From the NCBI GenBank assembly GCA_041674805.1, contig JBAYVA010000002.1, forward strand, positions 184,294 through 248,293: a DNA stretch of 64,000 nt. The letters run 5' to 3'. A model generated the notes under the pieces. That model searched no databases. It had not been told where the DNA came from and was given only the letters and a program-made list of their open reading frames with translations. The position numbers and the translations under genes were made by a program. Numbering within the stretch: the stretch's first letter is position 1; the number at the start of each line of letters is the position of its first letter. Shown here piece by piece: positions 1 through 61,535 of this stretch. The stretch is from Candidatus Magasanikiibacteriota bacterium (GTDB lineage Bacteria > Patescibacteriota > Patescibacteriia > Magasanikbacterales > UBA922).

Positions 1-905
1 GTGTACATGAGGGTTCAAACATTTGGATGACTCCATATAGTGCAGATCGTGTCATAAAAGTAAATACTAATACAGGTGAGATGATTGGCTACAATAGTTG
101 GCCGGCTGGTTTTACAAAAGGAAATAATGCTTTTCGTAGTAGTGTATACGATGGAACAAATATTTGGTTGATTCCATTTAATGCAGATCGTGTTATAAAA
201 GTAAATACTAATACAGGTGAAATGATTGGCTATGATAGTTGGCCAGCTGGTTTTACAAAAGGATTCTCTGCTTTTGCGGGAAGTGTATATGATGGCACAA
301 ATATTTGGATGATTCCACATAATGCAGACCGTGTAATAAAGATAAATACTAATACAGGTGAGATGACTGGCTATAATAGTTGGCCAGCTGGTTTTACAAA
401 AGGATTCGTTTCTTTTGCAGGAGGTGTATATGATGGCACAAATGTTTGGATGATCCCACATACTGCAGATCGTGTTATAAAAGTAAATACTAATACAGGT
501 GAAATGATTGGCTATGATAGTTGGCCAGCTGGTTTTACAAAAGGAGCTGCTGCTTTTACAGGAGGTGTATATGACGGTTCGAATGTTTGGATGATCCCGC
601 AAGATGCAGATCGTGTTATAAAAGTAAATGCTAATACAGGTGAGATGACTGGCTATAATAGTTGGCCAGCTGGTTTTACAAAAGGAGGGTATGCTTTTGT
701 TGGAGGTGTATATGACGGTTCGAATGTTTGGATGATTCCATTAGATGCAGATCGTGTTATAAAAGTAAATGCTAGTACAGGTGAGATGACTGGCTATAAT
801 AGTTGGCCAGCGGGTTATACAGGTAGTTTTTGGAATTTTACCGGAGGTATATATGATGGTTCAAATATTTGGATGATTCCACATAATGCAGATCGTGTTA
901 TAAAA
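1..905. repeat. Eight tandem in-frame 141-nt coding repeats (47 aa each) inside the surface-protein gene.
   Basis: 'gcagatcgtgt(c/t)ataaaagtaaatactaatacaggtga' recurs starting at 42, 183, 324, 465, 606, 747 and 888. The minus-strand ORF 15..602 is a shadow ORF of this repeat. Confidence 0.85.
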
Positions 906-3122
906 ATTTCTACTATACCAAACGCTGCCCCAACCCTCACATCCCTCACCGCCACTCCTGCCACCAATGGCACTGGCAATGTTAGTATCGTGGCTACTGT
1001 AAGTGATGCTGACGCAAACACAAGTAAAATATCATATCACTACGAAAGCGGAACTTGTGGAAGTTTTAATTATCAAGATACAACTACAACAACTTTAAGT
1101 GCTTCTGTGGGTACTGGTAGTGTAGTAATATTAAATAATGAAGCGACAAATATTTCTACTGCTTCAGCTAATACGGTTACTTCTACCTGGAATACTCTAT
1201 CAGATTCTCTATCTTTAGCCAACGGCCCTTACTGTATCTACGCTTTCGCAAATGATGGTACTGTAGATTCAAGTGTTGTTACCACTACTGTCACTCTAGA
1301 TAACGTCGCTCCAGATTATGCTACTATAACTAGTTTTGACAACACCTCAACTACTGTTTATGGTGTCTGGGGAGCAGTCAGTGATACAAATGGTCCAGTA
1401 CTTTACCAAACACAAATAAATCCAGGTAGTACTTCAATATATTTTAATGGACTTAATACTAATCATAGTAATTTGACTCCTAATACACAGTATTCTTGGC
1501 AAATAAGAACTAAAGATGCTTATGGTAATACTAAAGGTTTCAATACCTCCACAAGTACTTACACCAACCCCGCTCAACCTCTCTCTGTCTCAGCCATCGC
1601 CAACGGCCAAACAGCTACCATCGTATCCTGGGAAGCAAACAATAACCCAACTAGTACTGCTTACCGTGTTTATAACGTAAACAAAGGTACTTTGTCAGAT
1701 CCAGTATATACAACAAAAACTACAATCACTGGTCTTTCTAGTGCTTCAAATTATACTTTCAAAGTTAGAGCTTATTACAACTCAGATAATACTACTTATG
1801 TAGAATCAGATGCTACGCAAACAGTTACCACCGCAGCACCAGCTAGAACTGTTGTTATGACTTTGCTTACCTCAGATGATAACGTCATCCCTGCTTACAC
1901 TTTCGTCGGCGTTAGAGAATCTCATACTGTACAATTAGAAGCTATTGTTACTAGTACTGATCCACTAGTCTTACCAAAGGCTAGACTTACTCTACGTTCT
2001 ACTCCAGTCACCGTTACTCTAGCCGCTGGTGAAAGCCAAAATGTAGATACTAATGGTAATGGTACAAATGATACCACAGTTACCGTTAATAGTGTTGATG
2101 AAAATACTGGAGAAGTAAATTTCACTTTAATACATATCCCACAAGGTGGTAGTATGATTGTGCAAAATCCACCAAAAGTAATAAATAGTAGTGGTAGAGC
2201 ATTAAGTATTAATGAAGATGCTAAAACAACTGTTAGTAAAATAGTAAAATTAAAATTAGATATTAGTAACGCTAGTCAAATGGCTGTGTCTAATGATCCA
2301 GACTTCACTAATGCCTCATTTGAAACATATAGTAGTAGTAAAGAATGGACACTAACTGACGGAAATGGTACTAAAATAGTTTACGTCAAATTTAGAGCTC
2401 CAGATGGTAGTAGTATCGTCTACTCAGATACTATAGAATTAATGGGACAAAGCTTCGCTGACCCAAATAGTATAAAAAATCAAGAGCTGTTGAATAAAAT
2501 AGAAGATAAGATAAGTTGTCCAGTAATAACTGAACAATCGTACCAAGTAAAAGGTGAGAAAGCAGTGTATTATGTAACAAAAGAATGTACAAAGAGAGTT
2601 TTTAAAAGATCAGAAGTGTACTTTACATATTTTGGAAGTTGGAAAGAAGTAAAAAGTATCGAGAAAGATATCTTAAATAAAATAAGTAATGATAAATTGG
2701 ACTTCATGCCAATGGGACCAAAATATGATCCAAAATATGGCGCTCTCGTTAAAGTAGTTAATGATCCAAAAGTATACCTTCTTCTAAATGAGAATAAATA
2801 TTGGATCACTAATGAAAATACCTTCAATAAATTAAATTATAATTGGAATTGGATAGAAGATGTAGATCAAAGATTGTTGGATAAATATACTACAAAAGAA
2901 GAAATCTTAAATATAATAAACCATCCCAATTATACTCTCGTAAAATACCAAAACGATCCAAAGGTTTATCGTATAGAACCAAACTCAACTGATATTACTA
3001 AACAAGTAAAACGTCACATTCCAAACGAAGCAGAATTCAATAAACTAAACTTCAGATTTGACCGTGTTGTCACTATTCCAGCGACAGAAGTCTATGAGAC
3101 AGGTGCAGAACTAAAGTCTTAG
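1..3122 (+). CDS. Large secreted or surface repeat protein, 5'-partial because the repeat reading frame continues to base 1. It has eight 47-aa repeats, then Thr/Ser-rich fibronectin-III-like modules, then a C-terminal region with duplicated 'NDPKVY...KYWI...FNKLN' modules.
   Basis: The ORF 27..3122 is open upstream in the same frame: VHEGSNIWMTPYSADRVIKV at bases 3-60 matches the repeat consensus. The unit ADRVIKVNTNTGEM(I/T)GY(N/D)SWPAGFTKG...VYDG(T/S)N(I/V)WMIP recurs with 141-nt periodicity. The C-terminal modules read 'KYDPKYGALVKVVNDPKVYLLLNENKYWITNENTFNKLNYNWNWI' and 'LVKYQNDPKVYRIEPNS...EAEFNKLNFRFDRV'. Confidence 0.75.
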   Translation, partial: VHEGSNIWMTPYSADRVIKVNTNTGEMIGYNSWPAGFTKGNNAFRSSVYDGTNIWLIPFNADRVIKVNTNTGEMIGYDSWPAGFTKGFSAFAGSVYDGTNIWMIPHNADRVIKINTNTGEMTGYNSWPAGFTKGFVSFAGGVYDGTNVWMIPHTADRVIKVNTNTGEMIGYDSWPAGFTKGAAAFTGGVYDGSNVWMIPQDADRVIKVNANTGEMTGYNSWPAGFTKGGYAFVGGVYDGSNVWMIPLDADRVIKVNASTGEMTGYNSWPAGYTGSFWNFTGGIYDGSNIWMIPHNADRVIKISTIPNAAPTLTSLTATPATNGTGNVSIVATVSDADANTSKISYHYESGTCGSFNYQDTTTTTLSASVGTGSVVILNNEATNISTASANTVTSTWNTLSDSLSLANGPYCIYAFANDGTVDSSVVTTTVTLDNVAPDYATITSFDNTSTTVYGVWGAVSDTNGPVLYQTQINPGSTSIYFNGLNTNHSNLTPNTQYSWQIRTKDAYGNTKGFNTSTSTYTNPAQPLSVSAIANGQTATIVSWEANNNPTSTAYRVYNVNKGTLSDPVYTTKTTITGLSSASNYTFKVRAYYNSDNTTYVESDATQTVTTAAPARTVVMTLLTSDDNVIPAYTFVGVRESHTVQLEAIVTSTDPLVLPKARLTLRSTPVTVTLAAGESQNVDTNGNGTNDTTVTVNSVDENTGEVNFTLIHIPQGGSMIVQNPPKVINSSGRALSINEDAKTTVSKIVKLKLDISNASQMAVSNDPDFTNASFETYSSSKEWTLTDGNGTKIVYVKFRAPDGSSIVYSDTIELMGQSFADPNSIKNQELLNKIEDKISCPVITEQSYQVKGEKAVYYVTKECTKRVFKRSEVYFTYFGSWKEVKSIEKDILNKISNDKLDFMPMGPKYDPKYGALVKVVNDPKVYLLLNENKYWITNENTFNKLNYNWNWIEDVDQRLLDKYTTKEEILNIINHPNYTLVKYQNDPKVYRIEPNSTDITKQVKRHIPNEAEFNKLNFRFDRVVTIPATEVYETGAELKS

Positions 3123-4020: not shown

Positions 4021-4662
4021 ATGCCTGTCAGCAAAAAGAGCCCTAAAAAAGCTTCCAAAAAACAATCTAAAAGCAAAAAAATAGCCAAAAAAACTGTTGC
4101 TAAAAAGGTAAACAAAAATGATAAAGAAATGCAGGAAATAAAAAAAGCTGTGAAAGATTTACCAAATATTTTAGCTCAAGAATTCAAAAATATTTCTGTT
4201 GAAAAAACTTTGGATATAAAACCAGTATTGGTTGCTCGTGAAGAAAAATCAATTCCTTTCGATGTTGCCAAAACTCCAGAAATTTCTGAGGTTTATATTG
4301 CCCCCAAAAATAGTCGTTTGTGGCTTTGGTCTGCTGTTAGTTTGTTTACTGTTATTATTTTAGCTTTATGGGTTTTGAGTGTAAGTAATTTATTTTATAA
4401 TTCAAAAAATTCACCAGATAATCCTTTGGAATCTTTGAAAGGTAGCAAAGAAGAATTAAAAGGGATATTCAAAAATTTTGAAGATAGTAAACCTACTACT
4501 ACCATAAAAGATATTATTGGAGAAAGCATGTTTACTACTTCTACGGTGTCTAGTACATTGAGTACGACTACTGTAGATGTAAAAAAAATTGAAGAAGCTA
4601 TATCTGGTTTGTTTGTAAGTAGTAGTGATAATAATTTAATAGTAACAAATACAAAAGAATAA
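4021..4662 (+). CDS. Hypothetical membrane protein with a Lys-rich, histone-H1-like N-terminal tail and a single TM helix.
   Basis: Starts MPVSKKSPKKASKKQSKSKKIAKKTVAKK; the hydrophobic segment is LWLWSAVSLFTVIILALWVLSV. Confidence 0.5.
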   Translation: MPVSKKSPKKASKKQSKSKKIAKKTVAKKVNKNDKEMQEIKKAVKDLPNILAQEFKNISVEKTLDIKPVLVAREEKSIPFDVAKTPEISEVYIAPKNSRLWLWSAVSLFTVIILALWVLSVSNLFYNSKNSPDNPLESLKGSKEELKGIFKNFEDSKPTTTIKDIIGESMFTTSTVSSTLSTTTVDVKKIEEAISGLFVSSSDNNLIVTNTKE

Positions 4663-35104: not shown

Positions 35105-35170
35105 ATAAACTACTCTGTAAATCAAAAAACACCAGCTCAATCGAGACTGGTGTTTTTAAATTTAAAAAAA

Positions 35171-35662
35171 TTATTTAGTCTTTACTACATAAGTCCTAGC
35201 CAACAAATCATGCCAAGCTCTTTTTTGTGGCTCAAATCCAGCCCAGATGAAACCAATGAAAAATGGAACAGCACTAACTATTGTAGAGAAAAAACGTATA
35301 AAAGATTGTGATGTATTAATATTTTCTCCTTGTTCATTTACAATTTTTAGTCCTAAAATAATTTTGCCAGGAGTAGCTGATTTCCAAATCCAAAATCCTA
35401 TAATGTAAGTCATAGGCACTATAACTTTCCATCCAGTATAAGTGAAGGCTAAACCAGCAGGTCCAAGACTACTTGCCCCAAAGAAGAAACCTATTATATA
35501 TAGTCCAACACAATCTAGAATAATCGCCAAAAATCTAATCCAAAATCCAGCATATTGTCTTTCCTCAGGTTTTACATTTATAGTTGTTGGTGTTGGTATT
35601 GTGCTAGGTGTATCCATTTTTGAATTTAATACTTCTGTGTTTTGTTTTGGTTGTGTTTCCAT
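35171..35662 (-). CDS. RDD-family membrane protein.
   Basis: 'ILGLKIVNEQGENI...RAWHDLLARTYVV' is a typical RDD C-terminus. Confidence 0.65.
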   Translation of the reverse strand: METQPKQNTEVLNSKMDTPSTIPTPTTINVKPEERQYAGFWIRFLAIILDCVGLYIIGFFFGASSLGPAGLAFTYTGWKVIVPMTYIIGFWIWKSATPGKIILGLKIVNEQGENINTSQSFIRFFSTIVSAVPFFIGFIWAGFEPQKRAWHDLLARTYVVKTK

Positions 35663-36867: not shown

Positions 36868-36966
36868 TTCTCCCCCTATTAGGGGGAGTTAGAGGGGGTC
36901 CATCTTTGAACAAGACGTTTTATCTTATAAAAGACCTCCCCTAGCCCCTCCTAATAGGAGGGGGAT
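36868..36966. repeat. GC-rich palindromic interspersed element, copy A (about 100 nt).
   Basis: tctccccctattagggggagttagagggggtccatctttgaacaagacgttttatcttataaaagacctcccctagcccctcctaataggagggggattc. The terminal hairpins are CCCCCTAtTAGGGGG and CCCCTCCTAaTAGGAGGGG. Confidence 0.8.
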
Positions 36967-36984
36967 TCATAAAATTTATTTTTT

Positions 36985-46956: not shown

Positions 46957-47151
46957 ATGTTGAGTAAAGTATTGCAAAATCTAAAAAAATTAGAGAAGAA
47001 AAAAAGTTCTGATTTAAATATAAATCTACAAGGTCTAAAAACACCTAAACCTCAAAAAACTGGTTTTCATGCTAAAGCAAAAAGTGAAGCCGGTGCACTT
47101 CGTCAAAGAAGTATGGGTAATAGAATGAGTAAACCTAGTAGATCAAAATAA
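46957..47151 (+). CDS. Hypothetical small basic protein.
   Basis: 64 aa, Lys/Arg-rich, with a terminator 47150-47180 downstream. Confidence 0.35.
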   Translation: MLSKVLQNLKKLEKKKSSDLNINLQGLKTPKPQKTGFHAKAKSEAGALRQRSMGNRMSKPSRSK

Positions 47152-47309
47152 GATCTACAAAAACAGAGTGTTTTACTCTGTTTTTTTACATTTTTCAAAT
47201 TGGTAATAAATTTGTAAAGATGATATTGAAAAATATTTATTTGTTTATTGTTGACAACAATCTTTTTTTTGTTTACAATGCAGCGAAAAATGTAGTAAAA
47301 TAATAACAT

Positions 47310-48503
47310 ATGAATAAAAAAATAAAAATAATTTTGTTAGTATTAAGCCTTTTCATAATTTTGGCTTTGTTATGGTATTTTTGGTGGATAAAAAGAGACA
47401 GTGTTGATGCTGAAAAACAAGAGGAACAAAAGCAGGAAATATTGAAAGTTATTGAAGATAGAATTGCTACACAAGTACGTGAAAATGACGATGCCGATCC
47501 TTTTGGTGAAGATGGATTAGCACGTATTCTTCTGATTGGTCTTGATAGTAGAGCTGGACAAACTTTTGGGCATTGTGATGTGATTCAAATGTTGGAAATA
47601 GATAAAAACAAAAGTAATGTACAAATTACAGCTGTACCTCGTGGTACTTATTCTTCGTTACCTCCTGGTAAAGCTGTGACTTCTACAGATTATTATGTAT
47701 CCAATGCTTGTGGTTTGGCTGGTCTTGATTATGGTATCAAACAAATTGAGAAAATATTAGGTAAAAAAGCTGATTATTTGGTGGTAGTAGGTTTTTCTGA
47801 AACTTTGGGCATTTTGCGTAGTTTTGATTTGCCTACAACAGAAACTTTGCAATGGTTACGTCAAAGACAAGGTTATCGTATTGGTGAACCTCAAAGAGCT
47901 CGTAATCATTCTACTTTTATCAAACAAATGATGACAAAATATATTCCTGAAAAAAATTCAAAGTTTGATTTGCCTTTTCATTATTTAATTTACAAAATTA
48001 TAAAGACAGATTTGAGTTTTGAAGAATCAGAAAAAATAATAGGAGTACTTAGTGAGATGGAATTGTCAAAAAATTCTGATAAAATTTCTTTGGCGATGCG
48101 ACCAAGTTATGATGTAGAAGATATACCTTATAATTCTGAAAACGTTGAGGAATACGTAAAAAAAATGATAGACCCTGTCAAAAATTATTTGAAAGGTAGT
48201 AGTTATACGGGAGTTACTTTAGAAGAAGCTGATGCTAAAGTTTTGGCTACTTATAATGAAAGAAAAACTGAAAAAGAATTTGTAAATTGGGCTTTTGAAA
48301 ATAATTTATGGATGCAAGTGGAAGATGAAGAAGCAAGAGAAACTTTGCATTTAGAAATTTTGCAAGATTATTTAAAAAGTATTTCTGAAGTAAAAAAGAA
48401 AGAAGATATTTTGACAGATTATATTTTAGAAATGAAATATCTTGGTTTAGAAGATTGGGCTAGTAAAGGGGAAAAGATTTTGGAAGAAGAAATAGTAAAA
48501 TAG
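47310..48503 (+). CDS. LytR-CpsA-Psr (LCP) family protein.
   Basis: N-terminal TM helix and 'ARILLIGLDSRAGQTFGHCDVIQMLEID', the LCP core. Confidence 0.7.
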   Translation: MNKKIKIILLVLSLFIILALLWYFWWIKRDSVDAEKQEEQKQEILKVIEDRIATQVRENDDADPFGEDGLARILLIGLDSRAGQTFGHCDVIQMLEIDKNKSNVQITAVPRGTYSSLPPGKAVTSTDYYVSNACGLAGLDYGIKQIEKILGKKADYLVVVGFSETLGILRSFDLPTTETLQWLRQRQGYRIGEPQRARNHSTFIKQMMTKYIPEKNSKFDLPFHYLIYKIIKTDLSFEESEKIIGVLSEMELSKNSDKISLAMRPSYDVEDIPYNSENVEEYVKKMIDPVKNYLKGSSYTGVTLEEADAKVLATYNERKTEKEFVNWAFENNLWMQVEDEEARETLHLEILQDYLKSISEVKKKEDILTDYILEMKYLGLEDWASKGEKILEEEIVK

Positions 48504-48516
48504 TTTTATTTTTTAA

Positions 48517-49368
48517 TTGAATTCTATGTCAAATAAATTACAAAATTTTTTTTTGGCAATCTTGTTTATTCTTGTTTTGGTTTTGACTTTTTGGTTAGTT
48601 ACTGTTTTGATTTGGAACAATATTTTGGTAAAAAATTTGGAAAATAAAAATGATGCAAATTCTAATTTAGAAGATGTAGTTGCTTGTACGATGGATGCTA
48701 AGATGTGTCCTGATGGTTCTTATGTTGCTAGAGTAGCGCCTGACTGTGAATTTGAAGCTTGTCCTGAAGAAGAAACAAATATTGATAAAGATTCTGGATT
48801 TTTACCAGAAGATAATACTACTTTTGAAAATCAAAATATGATGAATTGGTATGAAAATAAACCATTATCTTTTGATAATCTTGATTGGCAAGAAATTACA
48901 AGATCTGATGGTGTAAAATTCATAGCTCCTATACATGCACCTTTCTTTAATTGGTCACCAGAAGTAAAAATATCCAAAGGAAAATTGAATTGTCCTATAT
49001 CAGATATTCCTTCAAATAGTCCTGCACCTCATTTTGTTGAAAAAAATATTGGAGATAAAAAATACTGTTTATATGTCTATGGGGAAGGTGCGGCAGGAAC
49101 TTCTTATAGTAGTAGTTTATATATCACTGAGGTTGAAGAGGGACTTTTAGTAGAAATACCTGTTGTAGTATCACATACTAATTGTGGAGTTTATGGGGAT
49201 GAAGATATTGAAAAATGTGAGATTGGACAAAAATCCTGGAATAATTTTATGGAAGCAAATTTAGATAATTTTATAAATAAAATAATAAATAGTATAGAAA
49301 TTCCAAACAATATTAAAGCTGATTTTCCTGAATATAATATACAGGAGTTTATAATTAATAATTTTTAA
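48517..49368 (+). CDS. Membrane-anchored Cys-rich secreted protein, paralog 1.
   Basis: N-terminal TM helix and the shared motif 'CTMDAKMCPDGSYVARVAPDCEFEACPEE'. Confidence 0.55.
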   Translation: MNSMSNKLQNFFLAILFILVLVLTFWLVTVLIWNNILVKNLENKNDANSNLEDVVACTMDAKMCPDGSYVARVAPDCEFEACPEEETNIDKDSGFLPEDNTTFENQNMMNWYENKPLSFDNLDWQEITRSDGVKFIAPIHAPFFNWSPEVKISKGKLNCPISDIPSNSPAPHFVEKNIGDKKYCLYVYGEGAAGTSYSSSLYITEVEEGLLVEIPVVVSHTNCGVYGDEDIEKCEIGQKSWNNFMEANLDNFINKIINSIEIPNNIKADFPEYNIQEFIINNF

Positions 49369-49373
49369 AAAAC

Positions 49374-50081
49374 ATGAATATGAATGAAAAAAAATCATGG
49401 TTAATTATAATTTTGGTTTTTGTGATGTTAGTCGTGGCTACTTTTGTTGTAATTTTTATTTTATTTAAAGATTCTTGGTTTGAATCACAATCCAATAATC
49501 CAAATAACAATAATGAAGATAATACAGTTTATTGCACTGCTGACGCCAAGATGTGTCCTGATGGTTCTTATGTTGGTAGAGTAGCACCTGACTGTGAATT
49601 TGAAGCTTGTCCTGAAGTAATTAGTAGTTCTACCAATGAGGGTTTCTTGCCAGAAGTAAATAACAGTTTTGATGCTGTAATTTGGGAAGAAGTAAACAAA
49701 AATAATTTAATTTATCAAGTACCAAAAGAAATTGGTGGTTTCAATTTTGTAAAATTAAACGATTTCCCAACAGAGGTAAAATTATTAGATGAAAAATTTT
49801 CTTGTGAAGAAGAAGGTGATACAAAAAAAATAATTAATAGTACAACATATTGTGTAAATGTTTTTTCTGAAGGTGCTGCTGGTAGTATATTTGATACTTA
49901 TAATTACACTACATCTTTTTCTGATAACAAAGTATTAGAAATTGTGTTTACTGTAATTTTTCCACAATGTATGAATTATGATGGTTTGAGAGCAGAAGAT
50001 TGTATTCAAGAAGAAAAAGATTTTAATATAGATTATTTGATAGGTAGAGTTGCAAAAAGTGTAAATGAAGTTAGTAACTAA
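49374..50081 (+). CDS. Membrane-anchored Cys-rich secreted protein, paralog 2.
   Basis: N-terminal TM helix and the shared motif 'CTADAKMCPDGSYVGRVAPDCEFEACPEV'. Confidence 0.55.
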   Translation: MNMNEKKSWLIIILVFVMLVVATFVVIFILFKDSWFESQSNNPNNNNEDNTVYCTADAKMCPDGSYVGRVAPDCEFEACPEVISSSTNEGFLPEVNNSFDAVIWEEVNKNNLIYQVPKEIGGFNFVKLNDFPTEVKLLDEKFSCEEEGDTKKIINSTTYCVNVFSEGAAGSIFDTYNYTTSFSDNKVLEIVFTVIFPQCMNYDGLRAEDCIQEEKDFNIDYLIGRVAKSVNEVSN

Positions 50082-50097
50082 ATAATTTTTTTCAAAA

Positions 50098-50131
50098 TAA
50101 AAATCACCATAGATTGAATGGTGATTTTTTA
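50098..50131 (+). terminator. Rho-independent terminator.
   Basis: aaaatcaccat-agattga-atggtgattttttatt. Confidence 0.7.
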
Positions 50132-50203
50132 TTGATTATTTTTTTTGTTGGGGATAAGTAGTTATTGCGATTTTGTCGCAGTTGTGTTATTATAACTTTG
50201 ACT

Positions 50204-50581
50204 ATGAAAAGTATTATCACACAACTTACTCAAGCTGGCTACAAATGTACTAAGCCTAGAAAAGAGGTTTTGGATTTTTTGGAAAAAAATCATCATGCTA
50301 TTTCTGCTCAAGATTTGCACAAACAAATTTCCAAAGTAGATAGAGCCTCTGTTTATCGCACTTTAAATTTGTTGGAAGAATTGGGGATAGTCAATATTGA
50401 AAATTTTAATAATGAAAAATTGTATTGTTTGTCAGCTGAACCTCATCATCATATCATTTGCAAAAAATGTGGGTTTAGTGAGGAAGTACCTTGTACTTAT
50501 GAACATTATAATTTTAGTAATTTTAGTAATGTACAACATCAGATGACTTTGACCGGTGTTTGTAATAAATGTAATAAATAA
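50204..50581 (+). CDS. zur: Fur-family metalloregulator (Zur-like).
   Basis: 'KPRKEVLDFL' DNA-binding helix, 'HHHIIC..CG' and C-terminal 'CNKCNK' metal sites. The start is taken at the internal Met. Confidence 0.75.
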   Translation: MKSIITQLTQAGYKCTKPRKEVLDFLEKNHHAISAQDLHKQISKVDRASVYRTLNLLEELGIVNIENFNNEKLYCLSAEPHHHIICKKCGFSEEVPCTYEHYNFSNFSNVQHQMTLTGVCNKCNK

Positions 50582-50586
50582 AAAAT

Positions 50587-51510
50587 ATGTTGAAAAAAAT
50601 ATTTTTGTCTGTCGTTTTGTTTTTTGCTGTAACTCTTTTTTTAGGTGGTTGTAGTTTGCAAAATTCTTCTGAAGATACAAAAAATAGTGAACAAAAAATA
50701 AAAGTAGCTGCTAGTATTTTTCCTTTATATGATATAACAAAAGAAATTGCGGGAGATAAAATTGATGTTAGTTTGATTCTTCCTCCTGGCGCTAGCCCTC
50801 ACACTTTCGAAGTTTCAGCTTCTCAAATAAAAAAATTACAGGGTGTAAAATTGTTTTTTGTTATTGGTCAAAATTTGGATGCTTGGGTAGAAAATATTTC
50901 TTCAACAATCTCAGACTCGAAAACTGTTGATTTGAGTATGGTAGTAGAATTGCAACAACTAGATGAGAATAATCCAAATCATAGACCTGATGAAGAAGAT
51001 GAAGGTTTAGATCCTCACTATTGGCTAAGTCCAAAAAATATTTATACTGTATCTGAAGAAATTTTGAATCAATTGGTATTATTATCTCCAGAAAATGAAA
51101 GTTACTTTTTGGGTAATTATAATAATTTTGTAAATCAATTGCAGACCAAAGATGTCGAGTGGCAAGAAAAGATGAATAGTTTGACTAACAAAAATATTGT
51201 AGTATTTCATGATGCTTGGGGCTATTTTGCGGATCATTTTGGTTTGACTGTTGTTGGTACTTTTGAACCTTTTCCTGGACAAGAGCCTACTCCTCAATAT
51301 TTGAAAGAATTACAAGCTTCTGTCAAAGAATATAATATTAAAGCATTGTTTGCAGAACCACAGTTGTCTCAAGATTCTATCAAGACTTTAGCTAAAGATT
51401 TGGGAGTAGATATAAAAGTTTTGGATCCTACTGGTGGTGTAGAAGGACGTGCTAGTTATATTGAGATGATGGATTTTAATGTGAATAATGTATTTGATTT
51501 ATTAAAATAA
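50587..51510 (+). CDS. znuA: Metal (Zn/Mn) ABC-transporter substrate-binding lipoprotein, TroA/ZnuA family.
   Basis: Lipobox 'LGGCS', a His/Asp/Glu-rich loop 'NPNHRPDEEDEGLDPHYW' and the 'FHDAWGYF' motif. Confidence 0.7.
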   Translation: MLKKIFLSVVLFFAVTLFLGGCSLQNSSEDTKNSEQKIKVAASIFPLYDITKEIAGDKIDVSLILPPGASPHTFEVSASQIKKLQGVKLFFVIGQNLDAWVENISSTISDSKTVDLSMVVELQQLDENNPNHRPDEEDEGLDPHYWLSPKNIYTVSEEILNQLVLLSPENESYFLGNYNNFVNQLQTKDVEWQEKMNSLTNKNIVVFHDAWGYFADHFGLTVVGTFEPFPGQEPTPQYLKELQASVKEYNIKALFAEPQLSQDSIKTLAKDLGVDIKVLDPTGGVEGRASYIEMMDFNVNNVFDLLK

Positions 51511-51518
51511 TATTTGGA

Positions 51519-51612
51519 AGTTCCCCTCCTATTAGGAGGGGCTAGGGGAAGTATAGAGTAATATAAAACGTTTTATTCAAAGATGGACCCCCTCTAACTC
51601 CCCCTAATAAGG
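51519..51612. repeat. GC-rich palindromic interspersed element, copy B, in inverted orientation relative to copy A.
   Basis: Its reverse complement matches 36868-36966 over about 95 nt with about 12 substitutions. Confidence 0.8.
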
Positions 51613-58940: not shown

Positions 58941-61535
58941 ATGGCTGATAAAAGAGAACCTTTTGGGGGAACATTATCATTAGAAATAGAATCAAAAGAA
59001 GAGGGTAATGCTGAACTTGATTTTTTATTGAGTAAAATAAGAGAAATAAAAAGTATTTTAGAGTTGTTTCCTTATATGGATATGACAATACTTTATGATT
59101 TAACTAGTAAAGAAGAAAAAAAAGAAACGGTTCAAGATTTATTGGATCTTTTGAAAAAAGTGGAAGATGAGATAAAAACAAAATTTGAGTCTGGGGAATT
59201 AGTTAGTCAAGATGATGTTGATAAGTATCTTAAATTATTAAATTTTTTGGAAGTAGATTTTTGGAGTTTGATGTCAGAAAAAATTTCTCAAAAAGCAGGG
59301 TTTTCTTACAAAGCAGTACTTGAATGGCCAGAAGAATATTTAGATCGTGATTTTCTTTCTCAAAAAACAAAAGTTTTTGATACATTTGTTAAATCAGTTT
59401 TGACTTCAGCAGAATATTCTTATGAAGCTGTGTTGAGTTGGCCAGAAGAATATTTGGACAAGACTTTGAAAGGAGAAAGTGAAACAGTTTTTGCTAGATT
59501 GGTAAGGGAAGTCTTGACTTCTATAGAATATTCTTATGAAGCTGTATTGAGTTGGCCAAAAGAATATTTGGATAAAACTTTGGATGGTGATAATGAGACC
59601 ATTTTTGCTAGATTAGTAAAAGAAGTTAGGATATTAGCGGAATATTCTTATAAAGCACTAATGAATTGGAAGGAGGAATATTTACTTAGAACTTTGGAAG
59701 GTTGTAATGGCAATGTCGTGTCTATCTTGACTGCGGCGGTTTCTGATCCTGAGATTGAATCTTCTTCACTTTATTCAAGTCAAATGATTTTGGGATGGTC
59801 AGACATCTACAAAAAAAGTCCTTATAATTATACACCTGAAGACTATGCTAGATTTTTTAATCAAGTTTTAACAAATCCAAAATTAGTCGTTGATATTTTT
59901 GAAGAAAATTTTTCTTATTTTTCTGTGTCCGAGTTAGAATCATTGTTGAAAAGTGTTGTTTCTTCGCAGAAAGCTATTTATTATGCGTTAACAACTTGGG
60001 ATAGTAGTACACTTGATAAAAAAATAGGAAAAGATGGTAAAGATATTTTTTTTGTTTTAGCTTCAAATCTGGATTTTAATCATGTTGACAATTTAAATCT
60101 TAATAGTTTGTGTTTGTTATCAGAAGATAAATATTTAGATAGAGTTTTGGATGGAAAAAATACTTTTTTTACAAAATCAATATTGGCAATTCGTGATAGT
60201 ACAAATTTGTTTATTTATCTTCCAGCTTATTTTAGCAAAGATTATTTGTCTAGAAGTATGCCAGATACAGACAAAACTATCTTTGATCTGGTGGTGGAAA
60301 AAGCCCTAAAAATACCTTATTTTGCCTATGTGGCTGCTTTGAATTGGCAAAAAGAATTTTTGGATATAGTACAAGAAGGTGAAAATGAAAGTATACTTTC
60401 TAGACTTTTGGATGTTGTCAAAAAAGATAGCGAGTATTCTCAATTATTGTTAGTTACTTATAGCGAAGACAGTTCTACTCTAGATAGTCATTTTGTTGAT
60501 TTAGTTGAAAAAGTATTAGAATCTCCAGAATTTTCATATGAGGCTTTGTTGACTTGGCCAGAAGATCATTTGAATAAAATTATTTCTGGAAGTGCTGAAA
60601 CTGTTTTTTCAAGACTTTATGAAAAAGCATTACTTTTTGTGGAAGAGAAAAAAGAAAATAAATATAAATTATTTTTATTTTTGACAAAAAAACAGAGTGA
60701 ATCTAGTAGTATAAAAGATATTACACAATTTTTAGCTAGTTTGAGAGAAAGTTTAATAAAAGATGAGAGTTTTTATTTTTGGATTATTGGTAAATTGTAT
60801 CAGAAAGATAAAGATGTGTTAAAATTATTGGAGGATTTAGAAATTTTTGAAAAACTTATTGAATCTGTTTCTAATGATCCTAAAGATAGTGGTATTTTGT
60901 TAACTTCTTTGCCAGATTATTTATTGGATAAAACAGTTGGGGATAAAGAAGACAATACTTTTTCAAAATTGGTGAGAAAAAGTTTTGATGCTGAAAATTA
61001 TACTATTGTTCATACTTTATTAAATTTGGATTATTCATATTTAAATAGATGTTTACCTGGTGATGCTGAAAAAATATTTTATAAATATATAAGGTTAGTA
61101 ATTAATGATCCAAATTCTGCTCATTCACTTTTGTTGTTTTTGTCTGATAATTTACTTTTTGATACTTTGCCAGGTGATGATATGAGCATTTTTTTTAGAT
61201 TGGTTGAAACTGTTTCAACAAGTCCAAAATCTTCACTAGATTCTATTAAAGAAATATCTGAAGCAAAATTATATAGAAAATTTCCAGGTACAGGCAAAAG
61301 AGTTATTGAAATGTTTGTTGATTCTGTTTTGCAAGATCATCGATGGGTAAGTGATTTGATTCTTCATTGTGAAATACTTTTTTTAGAGTATATCATTCCA
61401 GATGATAACAAAAGTGTTTTAAAAAAGTTAGTTTCGGTTTTATCTGATGATGAGATCGTTAGATTGAAAAACCTTTTTTTAAGTAATAATCGAAAATTAC
61501 GTAGGAAGGATTTATTTTTAGAAGCAATTAAATAA
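58941..61535 (+). CDS. Large cytoplasmic helical-repeat protein of unknown function, with about 38-aa repeats.
   Basis: '(Y/F)SYEAVLSWPEEYLDKTL.G..ETVFARLV.EV' recurs at least 12 times with increasing divergence; no signal peptide or TM helix. Confidence 0.6.
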   Translation: MADKREPFGGTLSLEIESKEEGNAELDFLLSKIREIKSILELFPYMDMTILYDLTSKEEKKETVQDLLDLLKKVEDEIKTKFESGELVSQDDVDKYLKLLNFLEVDFWSLMSEKISQKAGFSYKAVLEWPEEYLDRDFLSQKTKVFDTFVKSVLTSAEYSYEAVLSWPEEYLDKTLKGESETVFARLVREVLTSIEYSYEAVLSWPKEYLDKTLDGDNETIFARLVKEVRILAEYSYKALMNWKEEYLLRTLEGCNGNVVSILTAAVSDPEIESSSLYSSQMILGWSDIYKKSPYNYTPEDYARFFNQVLTNPKLVVDIFEENFSYFSVSELESLLKSVVSSQKAIYYALTTWDSSTLDKKIGKDGKDIFFVLASNLDFNHVDNLNLNSLCLLSEDKYLDRVLDGKNTFFTKSILAIRDSTNLFIYLPAYFSKDYLSRSMPDTDKTIFDLVVEKALKIPYFAYVAALNWQKEFLDIVQEGENESILSRLLDVVKKDSEYSQLLLVTYSEDSSTLDSHFVDLVEKVLESPEFSYEALLTWPEDHLNKIISGSAETVFSRLYEKALLFVEEKKENKYKLFLFLTKKQSESSSIKDITQFLASLRESLIKDESFYFWIIGKLYQKDKDVLKLLEDLEIFEKLIESVSNDPKDSGILLTSLPDYLLDKTVGDKEDNTFSKLVRKSFDAENYTIVHTLLNLDYSYLNRCLPGDAEKIFYKYIRLVINDPNSAHSLLLFLSDNLLFDTLPGDDMSIFFRLVETVSTSPKSSLDSIKEISEAKLYRKFPGTGKRVIEMFVDSVLQDHRWVSDLILHCEILFLEYIIPDDNKSVLKKLVSVLSDDEIVRLKNLFLSNNRKLRRKDLFLEAIK
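59298..59753. repeat. Four tandem 114-nt coding repeats, the middle two nearly identical at the nucleotide level, inside the helical-repeat protein gene.
   Basis: 'gaatattcttatgaagctgt' recurs at 59412 and 59526, with related units at 59298 and 59640. Confidence 0.8.

Follow-up and report, generated by a model that had tools for sequence, protein, structure and literature searches.

Classic cases of gene conversion between bacterial paralogs are tufA/tufB in Salmonella and the rRNA operons, in which the paralogs are alike throughout. Here, we describe a tract of 70 nt that is nearly identical between two adjacent genes, named A and B, whose proteins share 30% amino-acid identity. The genes lie in a 64-kb stretch of contig JBAYVA010000002.1 from a Candidatus Magasanikiibacteriota bacterium, and this whole stretch of 64,000 nt is hereafter referred to as the window. 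The locus resembles gene conversion or concerted evolution between bacterial paralogs in that the tract of near-identity includes silent sites, the paralogs are on the same strand of one genome, and ancestry appears to be discordant across a breakpoint in a three-sequence comparison. It differs from the classic cases in the shortness of the tract and the divergence of the two genes. In our view, the probable origin of this island is a short tract, recently transferred by gene conversion or a template switch from one old tandem paralog to the other, that spans the most conserved part of the module they share. The other system that the locus recalls is the template repeat and variable repeat (TR/VR) pair of a diversity-generating retroelement, which also consists of two nearby copies of about 70 nt with few mismatches, one of them within a surface-protein gene. 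However, both copies here are coding parts of paralogous genes, the mismatches over the longest aligned stretch of 76 nt (T/C, T/C, C/G and G/A) are not adenine-specific, and no reverse transcriptase was found with Pfam within about 10 kb (open reading frames of 38.6-61.5 kb). This type of pair is rejected, in agreement with the initial annotation, which was made from the sequence of the window.

Gene A (48526..49368, + strand; NCBI WC070_03500) encodes 280 amino acids, while its mechanical open reading frame starts at the TTG at 48517. Its protein is an exact match to protein P0019 of a Candidatus Magasanikbacteria metagenome-assembled genome (MAG). Gene B (49374..50081, + strand; NCBI WC070_03505) encodes 233 amino acids from the ATG at 49380, and the JGI/ENA call gives 235 amino acids from 49374. 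The protein of gene A is composed of an N-terminal transmembrane anchor, a four-Cys mini-domain, a linker and a C-terminal α/β domain, and gene B has the same architecture. The initial annotation described A and B as diverged paralogs, and this description holds: their 30% amino-acid identity has an E-value of 2e-30, and the codon-aligned genes are 48% identical at the nucleotide level outside the island. A second public record (L005, a 133-kb contig), which may derive from the same reads as the assembly of the window, is identical to the window across 8,843 nt that include both genes.

The copy of the island in gene A, at 48700..48769 (+ strand), encodes KMCPDGSYVARVAPDCEFEACPE, and the copy in gene B, at 49548..49617 (+ strand), encodes KMCPDGSYVGRVAPDCEFEACPE. 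These are the limits of the best-scoring ungapped core, in which 68 of 70 positions are identical at an offset of 848 nt. Within it are uninterrupted matches of 28 and 31 nt, and the two mismatches are 48728 C/G, which exchanges Ala and Gly, and 48738 G/A, which is synonymous. A BLASTN comparison of the window with itself extends the match to 48694-48769 against 49542-49617, with 94.7% identity over 76 nt (72/76, 4 mismatches). The initial annotation had reported a stretch of 76 nt with four differences, which exists and encodes the peptide that it gave, but its second coordinate was 7 nt off; in its literal register (offset 842; 48693-48768 against 49535-49610) merely 24 of 76 bases match, and that register is rejected. 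The identity of the island is significantly above that of the remainder of the paralog alignment (68/70 against 48%). When all aligned sites were permuted, none of 20,000 permutations gave a 70-nt stretch with two or fewer mismatches, and the longest such stretch was 33. Neither half of the island core occurs elsewhere in the 64-kb window, even with 3 mismatches (shuffled sequences also give an expectation of 0), and the peptide motif was found in no frame of the window's other open reading frames. The island is real, and the event that it most likely records is of an ordinary kind.

Because the window has a G+C content of 32% and its codon usage is strongly biased, the silent-site test was limited to degenerate codons where A and B share the residue. 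In the island, 20 of 21 such codons are identical, while 12.3 are expected from the codon usage of the window. In the remainder of the gene, the same count is 34 of 56, close to the 32.5 expected. The synonymous divergence (NG86 dS) is 0.073 in the island and 0.90 in the remainder, and the corresponding nonsynonymous values (dN) are 0.019 and 0.87. These values and the codon counts therefore place the remainder of the gene, and not the island, at the level of saturation. For the island by itself, the Poisson-binomial tail probability is 7.5e-5. Scans over all 77 same-residue positions with residue-specific null probabilities, which allow for the post-hoc choice of boundaries, gave P=0.0016 for a run with no more than one difference and P=0.0021 for a likelihood ratio. 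A Fisher test of silent-site identity in the island versus outside gave P=0.004. The excess identity thus reaches synonymous sites and goes beyond what protein constraint and codon bias account for. At the 5' side, A and B use a different codon for each of the four conserved residues of 48685-48699 (C, T, D and A; TGT/TGC, ACG/ACT, GAT/GAC and GCT/GCC; 0/4 identical), so that the island has a sharp 5' edge within the conserved motif.

The closest relative found (L001/L002) has the same synteny as the window, with one gene of the family between LCP and Fur. Its protein identities to the window are 62% for LCP, 75% for Fur and about 80% for ZnuA. In the island (48700-48769), A and B are identical at 68/70 positions, while A and L001 share 48/70 and B and L001 share 47/70. 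The single-copy motif of L001 shows synonymous differences from that of A and B (AAA/AAG, CCA/CCT, TCG/TCT, GTA/GTT and AGG/AGA), and its sequence differs as well. In the linker directly 3' of the island (48770..48837, + strand in A; EETNIDKDSGFLPEDNTTFEN), the relation is reversed: A and B share 41/68 positions, B and L001 42/68, and A and L001 61/68, so that the linker of A is closest to the L001 ortholog and not to B. The nearest neighbour of A hence switches from B to L001 at 48769/48770 in this three-sequence test, which uses one outgroup genome with a single copy. Since L001 is equally far from both copies within the island, it gives no polarity for the direction of conversion.

When A was scanned against L001, the segment 48751-48912 stood out by its low divergence, with identity at 25 of 27 same-residue codons (P=0.0016). 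This second island, between lineages, matches L001 3741-3830, and the linker is about 90% identical in nucleotides although the LCP protein is only 62% identical. A comparable pattern is seen in znuA (50797-51264 against L001 6045-6788), in which 166 of 198 same-residue codons are identical (102 expected), with one run of 126/138. Same-residue codon sharing with L001 is far lower in LCP (145/236) and in Fur (62/92). The codon pattern of znuA suggests either a recent exchange between lineages or an unusually strong codon constraint.

The motif was also compared among loci from other genomes. In 138 such loci, a mean of 38% of same-residue motif codons are identical in between-genome pairs, and in AT-rich genomes (n=20) several codons are in use at each motif position. 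A position-specific codon preference is rejected, as 88 instances of the motif in other genomes show codon variation at all positions. L090, with a G+C fraction of 0.33, shares 20 of 23 residues and just 9 of 19 codons. The window pair ranks in the top three by nucleotide identity among 23 within-locus pairs, most of which are at baseline. Four of ten multi-copy loci (the window, L044, L074 and L076) have at least one pair above expectation (P<0.05, uncorrected). The search for relatives closer than L001 gave none: the best match was 36% among GTDB representative genomes and 27% over full length among JGI metagenome contigs, and a 90% cluster contained no closer one either.

The initial annotation had offered recent gene conversion as one of two explanations of the sharply bounded identity, and this one is best supported, by the silent identity confined to the tract, the sharp 5' edge and the neighbour switch at the 3' edge. 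From these observations, together with the near-identity itself and the variation of the motif's nucleotides from genome to genome, we infer the mechanism. A and B are old tandem paralogs of a family restricted to the Candidate Phyla Radiation (CPR; Patescibacteria). A recent, short and non-reciprocal recombination between copies 848 nt apart, either gene conversion or a template switch during replication, would have replaced, in one gene, two-thirds of the segment that codes for the module (its 3' part) by the corresponding sequence of the other gene, and either gene may have been the donor. Two substitutions would have accumulated since this exchange, and the module itself would be maintained by ordinary purifying selection on the protein. 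Tandem copies on the same strand at 848 nt are a favourable geometry for bacterial gene conversion. The initial annotation had also held that orthologs with the same motif and normal synonymous divergence would point to simple purifying selection instead of conversion. Such divergence is what the orthologs show, but the inference runs the other way: normal synonymous divergence in orthologs argues against a nucleotide constraint and hence for conversion.

Several points weigh against a conversion tract. The most conservative test, in which the gene's own silent-site series was permuted, gave P=0.038. The tract is short, with about 14 synonymous sites, so that the statistics are good but not overwhelming, and codon bias is strong in this genome of 32% G+C. 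One of the shared "rare" codons, AAG, is not rare at its position, where 8 of 18 AT-rich genomes use it. RecA-dependent exchange normally needs an identity of about 25 nt or longer, and the flanks are too diverged for that. Finally, among the genomes searched the outgroup L001 is the closest relative and has a single copy, and the two assembly records may not be independent.

A replacement or partial duplication of the module is a rather unlikely alternative. One gene would be chimeric with its junction in the motif, or a segment from a third copy or a foreign donor would have entered both genes. The module is indeed highly modular, being fused to many domains and present in up to 12 tandem copies. 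Moreover, divergence from another lineage is unusually low in the linker of A and in znuA, and short exchanges therefore seem to occur in this lineage. However, the 64-kb window has no third copy, and among the 98 homologs found, A and B are the sole ones on the contig of this MAG. Viral contigs gave neither an exact nor a peptide-level match to the tract, and a phage or foreign donor was rejected on this ground; the identity to the tract in the other fetched loci is at most 58/69. The outcome of such a replacement is indistinguishable from that of conversion with the present data.

It is also unlikely, in our estimate, that the island reflects selected concerted evolution, in which copies of the module are repeatedly homogenised within a genome to match a genome-specific partner, the island being one instance and not a neutral accident. 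The partner may be a dedicated oxidoreductase or processing enzyme, the cell-wall polymer of the adjacent LCP ligase, or a ligand on the host surface.

We regard as improbable an origin of the identity by chance, with no recombination, through purifying selection on a very conserved peptide in combination with AT-biased codons. The peptide is 60-85% identical across phyla, the codon homozygosity for K, C, D, Y, F and E is 0.7-0.8, and pairs within other genomes (L044, L074 and L076) also exceed expectation. The permutation of the gene's own silent sites, at just P=0.038, leaves some room for chance as well. On the other hand, the residue-specific null gives the low probability reported above for the island, and about 0.002 after the whole-gene scan. 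None of the four codons at the conserved residues directly 5' in the same motif is identical, and genomes that are just as AT-rich and encode this peptide agree in only about half of the codons. In L135, a pair with a 100% identical peptide has 15 of 23 codons identical and 8 synonymous differences.

A lineage-specific function of the nucleotide sequence, such as a small RNA or regulator site, an mRNA structure, or a target for recombination or modification, could also keep the copies identical, but we hold this to be very improbable. Consistent with such a function, the edges of the island differ from those of the protein motif, and the two copies are at a similar distance from their respective start codons. 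Against it, the minimum free energy of the two copies relative to shuffled sequence gives z-scores of -0.28 and +0.22 (sense) and +1.0 and +1.26 (antisense), Rfam has no match in 47000-51000 at E-values up to 1, synonymous variation is free in the L001 ortholog and at other loci, and the pattern is found nowhere else in the window. The nucleotide-level constraint that had been proposed beside conversion was thus not borne out: there is no significant RNA fold and no Rfam family, and the codons of the motif vary freely elsewhere. An artefact of assembly or consensus is the least likely of the explanations, and a very remote one: the source is a MAG and both records possibly come from the same reads, but the 70-nt repeat, with a longest exact run of 31 nt, is below the typical read length and the k=141 of the second assembly, each copy is in frame within an intact gene of its own, the copies differ internally at two positions, and the 317-kb and 133-kb records agree over 8.8 kb.

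The island encodes most of a module of 27 residues, C-T-x-D-A-K-x-C-P-D-G-S-Y-V-G-R-x-x-P-x-C-E-F-x-x-C-P. The whole four-Cys module spans 48685..48765 (+ strand) in A, where it has the form C-x6-C-x12-C-x4-C-P and its first 15 nt (48685-48699) are outside the island, and 49533..49613 (+ strand) in B. Across the family, the Cys columns show little or no variation. A query of 35 residues retrieved at least 6,581 protein clusters at 50% identity (E-values up to 1e-3), in which a protein can have as many as 12 copies, and a single peptide pattern gave at least 600 matches in GTDB representative genomes. Among the matches listed, most are from CPR bacteria; the others are from DPANN archaea and from a few further organisms, such as a Nannocystaceae and a Bdellovibrionales MAG. 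The module is also found in loci L003, L044, L074, L135 and others, and one record with the module, P0055, is labelled as the diatom Seminavis robusta, possibly by contamination. The usual position of the module is right after the membrane anchor, and its fusion partners are TspO, cupredoxin, cyclophilin, FKBP, rhodanese, MliC, Kazal and other extracytoplasmic domains.

An AlphaFold2 (AF2) model of the mini-domain of B alone has a predicted local distance difference test (pLDDT) score of 89 and shows two short β-strands. The module had no match in Pfam (2025 copy), NCBIfam or PDB sequences, and no significant match in the PDB by Foldseek (best E=5.5). Some repeat-only proteins have faint precomputed matches to PF27023 (6BHPP), and a literature search for the motif string CPDGS returned only irrelevant papers. 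Cys-rich extracellular modules of the Kazal type and zinc-ribbon-like modules are similar in having about 27 residues, four Cys, a β-hairpin core, an often tandem arrangement and an extracytoplasmic location, and the module co-occurs with Kazal domains in P0063 and P0078. The module differs from these in its C-x6-C-x12-C-x4-C spacing and in its invariant CPDGS and C-E-F-x-x-C-P segments. As the module is extracytoplasmic and lacks CxxC spacing, we favour disulfides over a metal site for the four Cys. The module is probably a disulfide-stabilised stalk element beside the membrane.

The family of A and B is present in Kaiserbacteria, Paceibacterota, Wildermuthbacteria, Doudnabacteria, Magasanikbacteria and other CPR lineages. 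The protein of gene A aligns with 36 family members, and four conserved Cys and a family-specific EGAAGS motif characterise the family. The AlphaFold model of B has a mean pLDDT of 86. It comprises an N-terminal transmembrane helix (residues 3-33), the confidently modelled mini-domain (51-78), a low-confidence linker, and a β-rich domain with two C-terminal helices (99-233). The C-terminal domain of A and B is predicted to be a Mog1/PsbP-like extracytoplasmic domain, with a resemblance at the level of the fold only: the sequence identity to structures of this fold (BT_1490 3hlz, Tsi3 4luq, Mog1 1jhs, PsbP 2xb3, LpqN 6e5d and DcrB 6e8a) is 6-13%, and the domain has no match in Pfam or NCBIfam. 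Two or three tandem copies of genes of this family are also found in other CPR genomes (L020 2605-4348, L029 and L033), and the paralogs of L033 (2802-2999 against 4050-4247) are 76% identical over 198 nt around the module.

The pair is located between a gene of the LCP (LytR_cpsA_psr) family (47310..48503, + strand; Pfam PF03816, E=3e-7) and a zur-znuACB cluster. The first gene of that cluster encodes a Fur/Zur-family regulator (50204..50581, + strand; Pfam FUR, E=6.9e-19) and is considered here as context only. The Pfam matches of the neighbours, LytR_cpsA_psr upstream and FUR, ZnuA, an ABC ATPase and ABC-3 downstream, confirm the gene order of the initial annotation. LCP and A are separated by 22 nt, and A and B by 5 nt. 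The best promoter-like site of the region, with 11 of 12 consensus positions, is 5' of LCP (47251-47279), and LCP is probably the first gene of a predicted LCP-A-B transcription unit. Terminator-like sites number 5, versus 0.8 expected; one of them is a hairpin after gene B (50099..50129, + strand), with a 12-bp stem and a T-run. The zur-znuACB cluster begins past this hairpin, which parts gene B from zur. The linkage of the family to LCP, Fur and ZnuA is found only in the close relative L001/L002 and is absent at about 24 other family loci. Given this limited linkage and the terminator-like hairpin between B and zur, the role in envelope metal handling that had been put forward, and with it a role in zinc, is not supported. 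In this lineage the pair is, if anything, associated with the LCP cell-wall ligase.

Other repeats were noticed in the window. A G+C-rich intergenic element of about 109 nt occurs twice at about 85% identity (36874-36982 on the + strand and 51504-51612 on the - strand). It has internal inverted symmetry (…TATTAGGGGGAGTTAGAGGGGGTCC…CCCCTAGCCCCTCCTAATAGGAGGGG…), one of the two copies is located between znuA and znuC, and the element looks like a repeat of the repetitive extragenic palindromic (REP) or miniature inverted-repeat transposable element (MITE) type. The terminator region after B (50077-50133, - strand) is about 80% like an intergenic hairpin region at 35120-35179 (+ strand), in inverted orientation. 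Two open reading frames contain internal repeats. The frame 27..3122 (1031 amino acids; window 1-905) has tandem repeats of 141 nt (47 codons) at its start that are 81-86% identical, and the frame 58941..61535 (864 amino acids, no Pfam match) has repeats of about 114 nt at about 73% identity (window 59294-59709).

The event that produced the island is in itself of little weight, but it shows that tandem paralogs which have diverged are homogenised over short tracts in a reduced CPR genome, and as an example the island is clean and datable. Of greater interest is the module. It may be an unannotated and very widespread extracytoplasmic mini-domain of ultra-small symbionts, the CPR bacteria and DPANN archaea. 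Thousands of hypothetical surface proteins could be annotated once it is clear whether the module has disulfides, a bound metal or a docking function at the envelope, and the organisms concerned are ones for which cell-surface biology is central to their symbiotic lifestyle.

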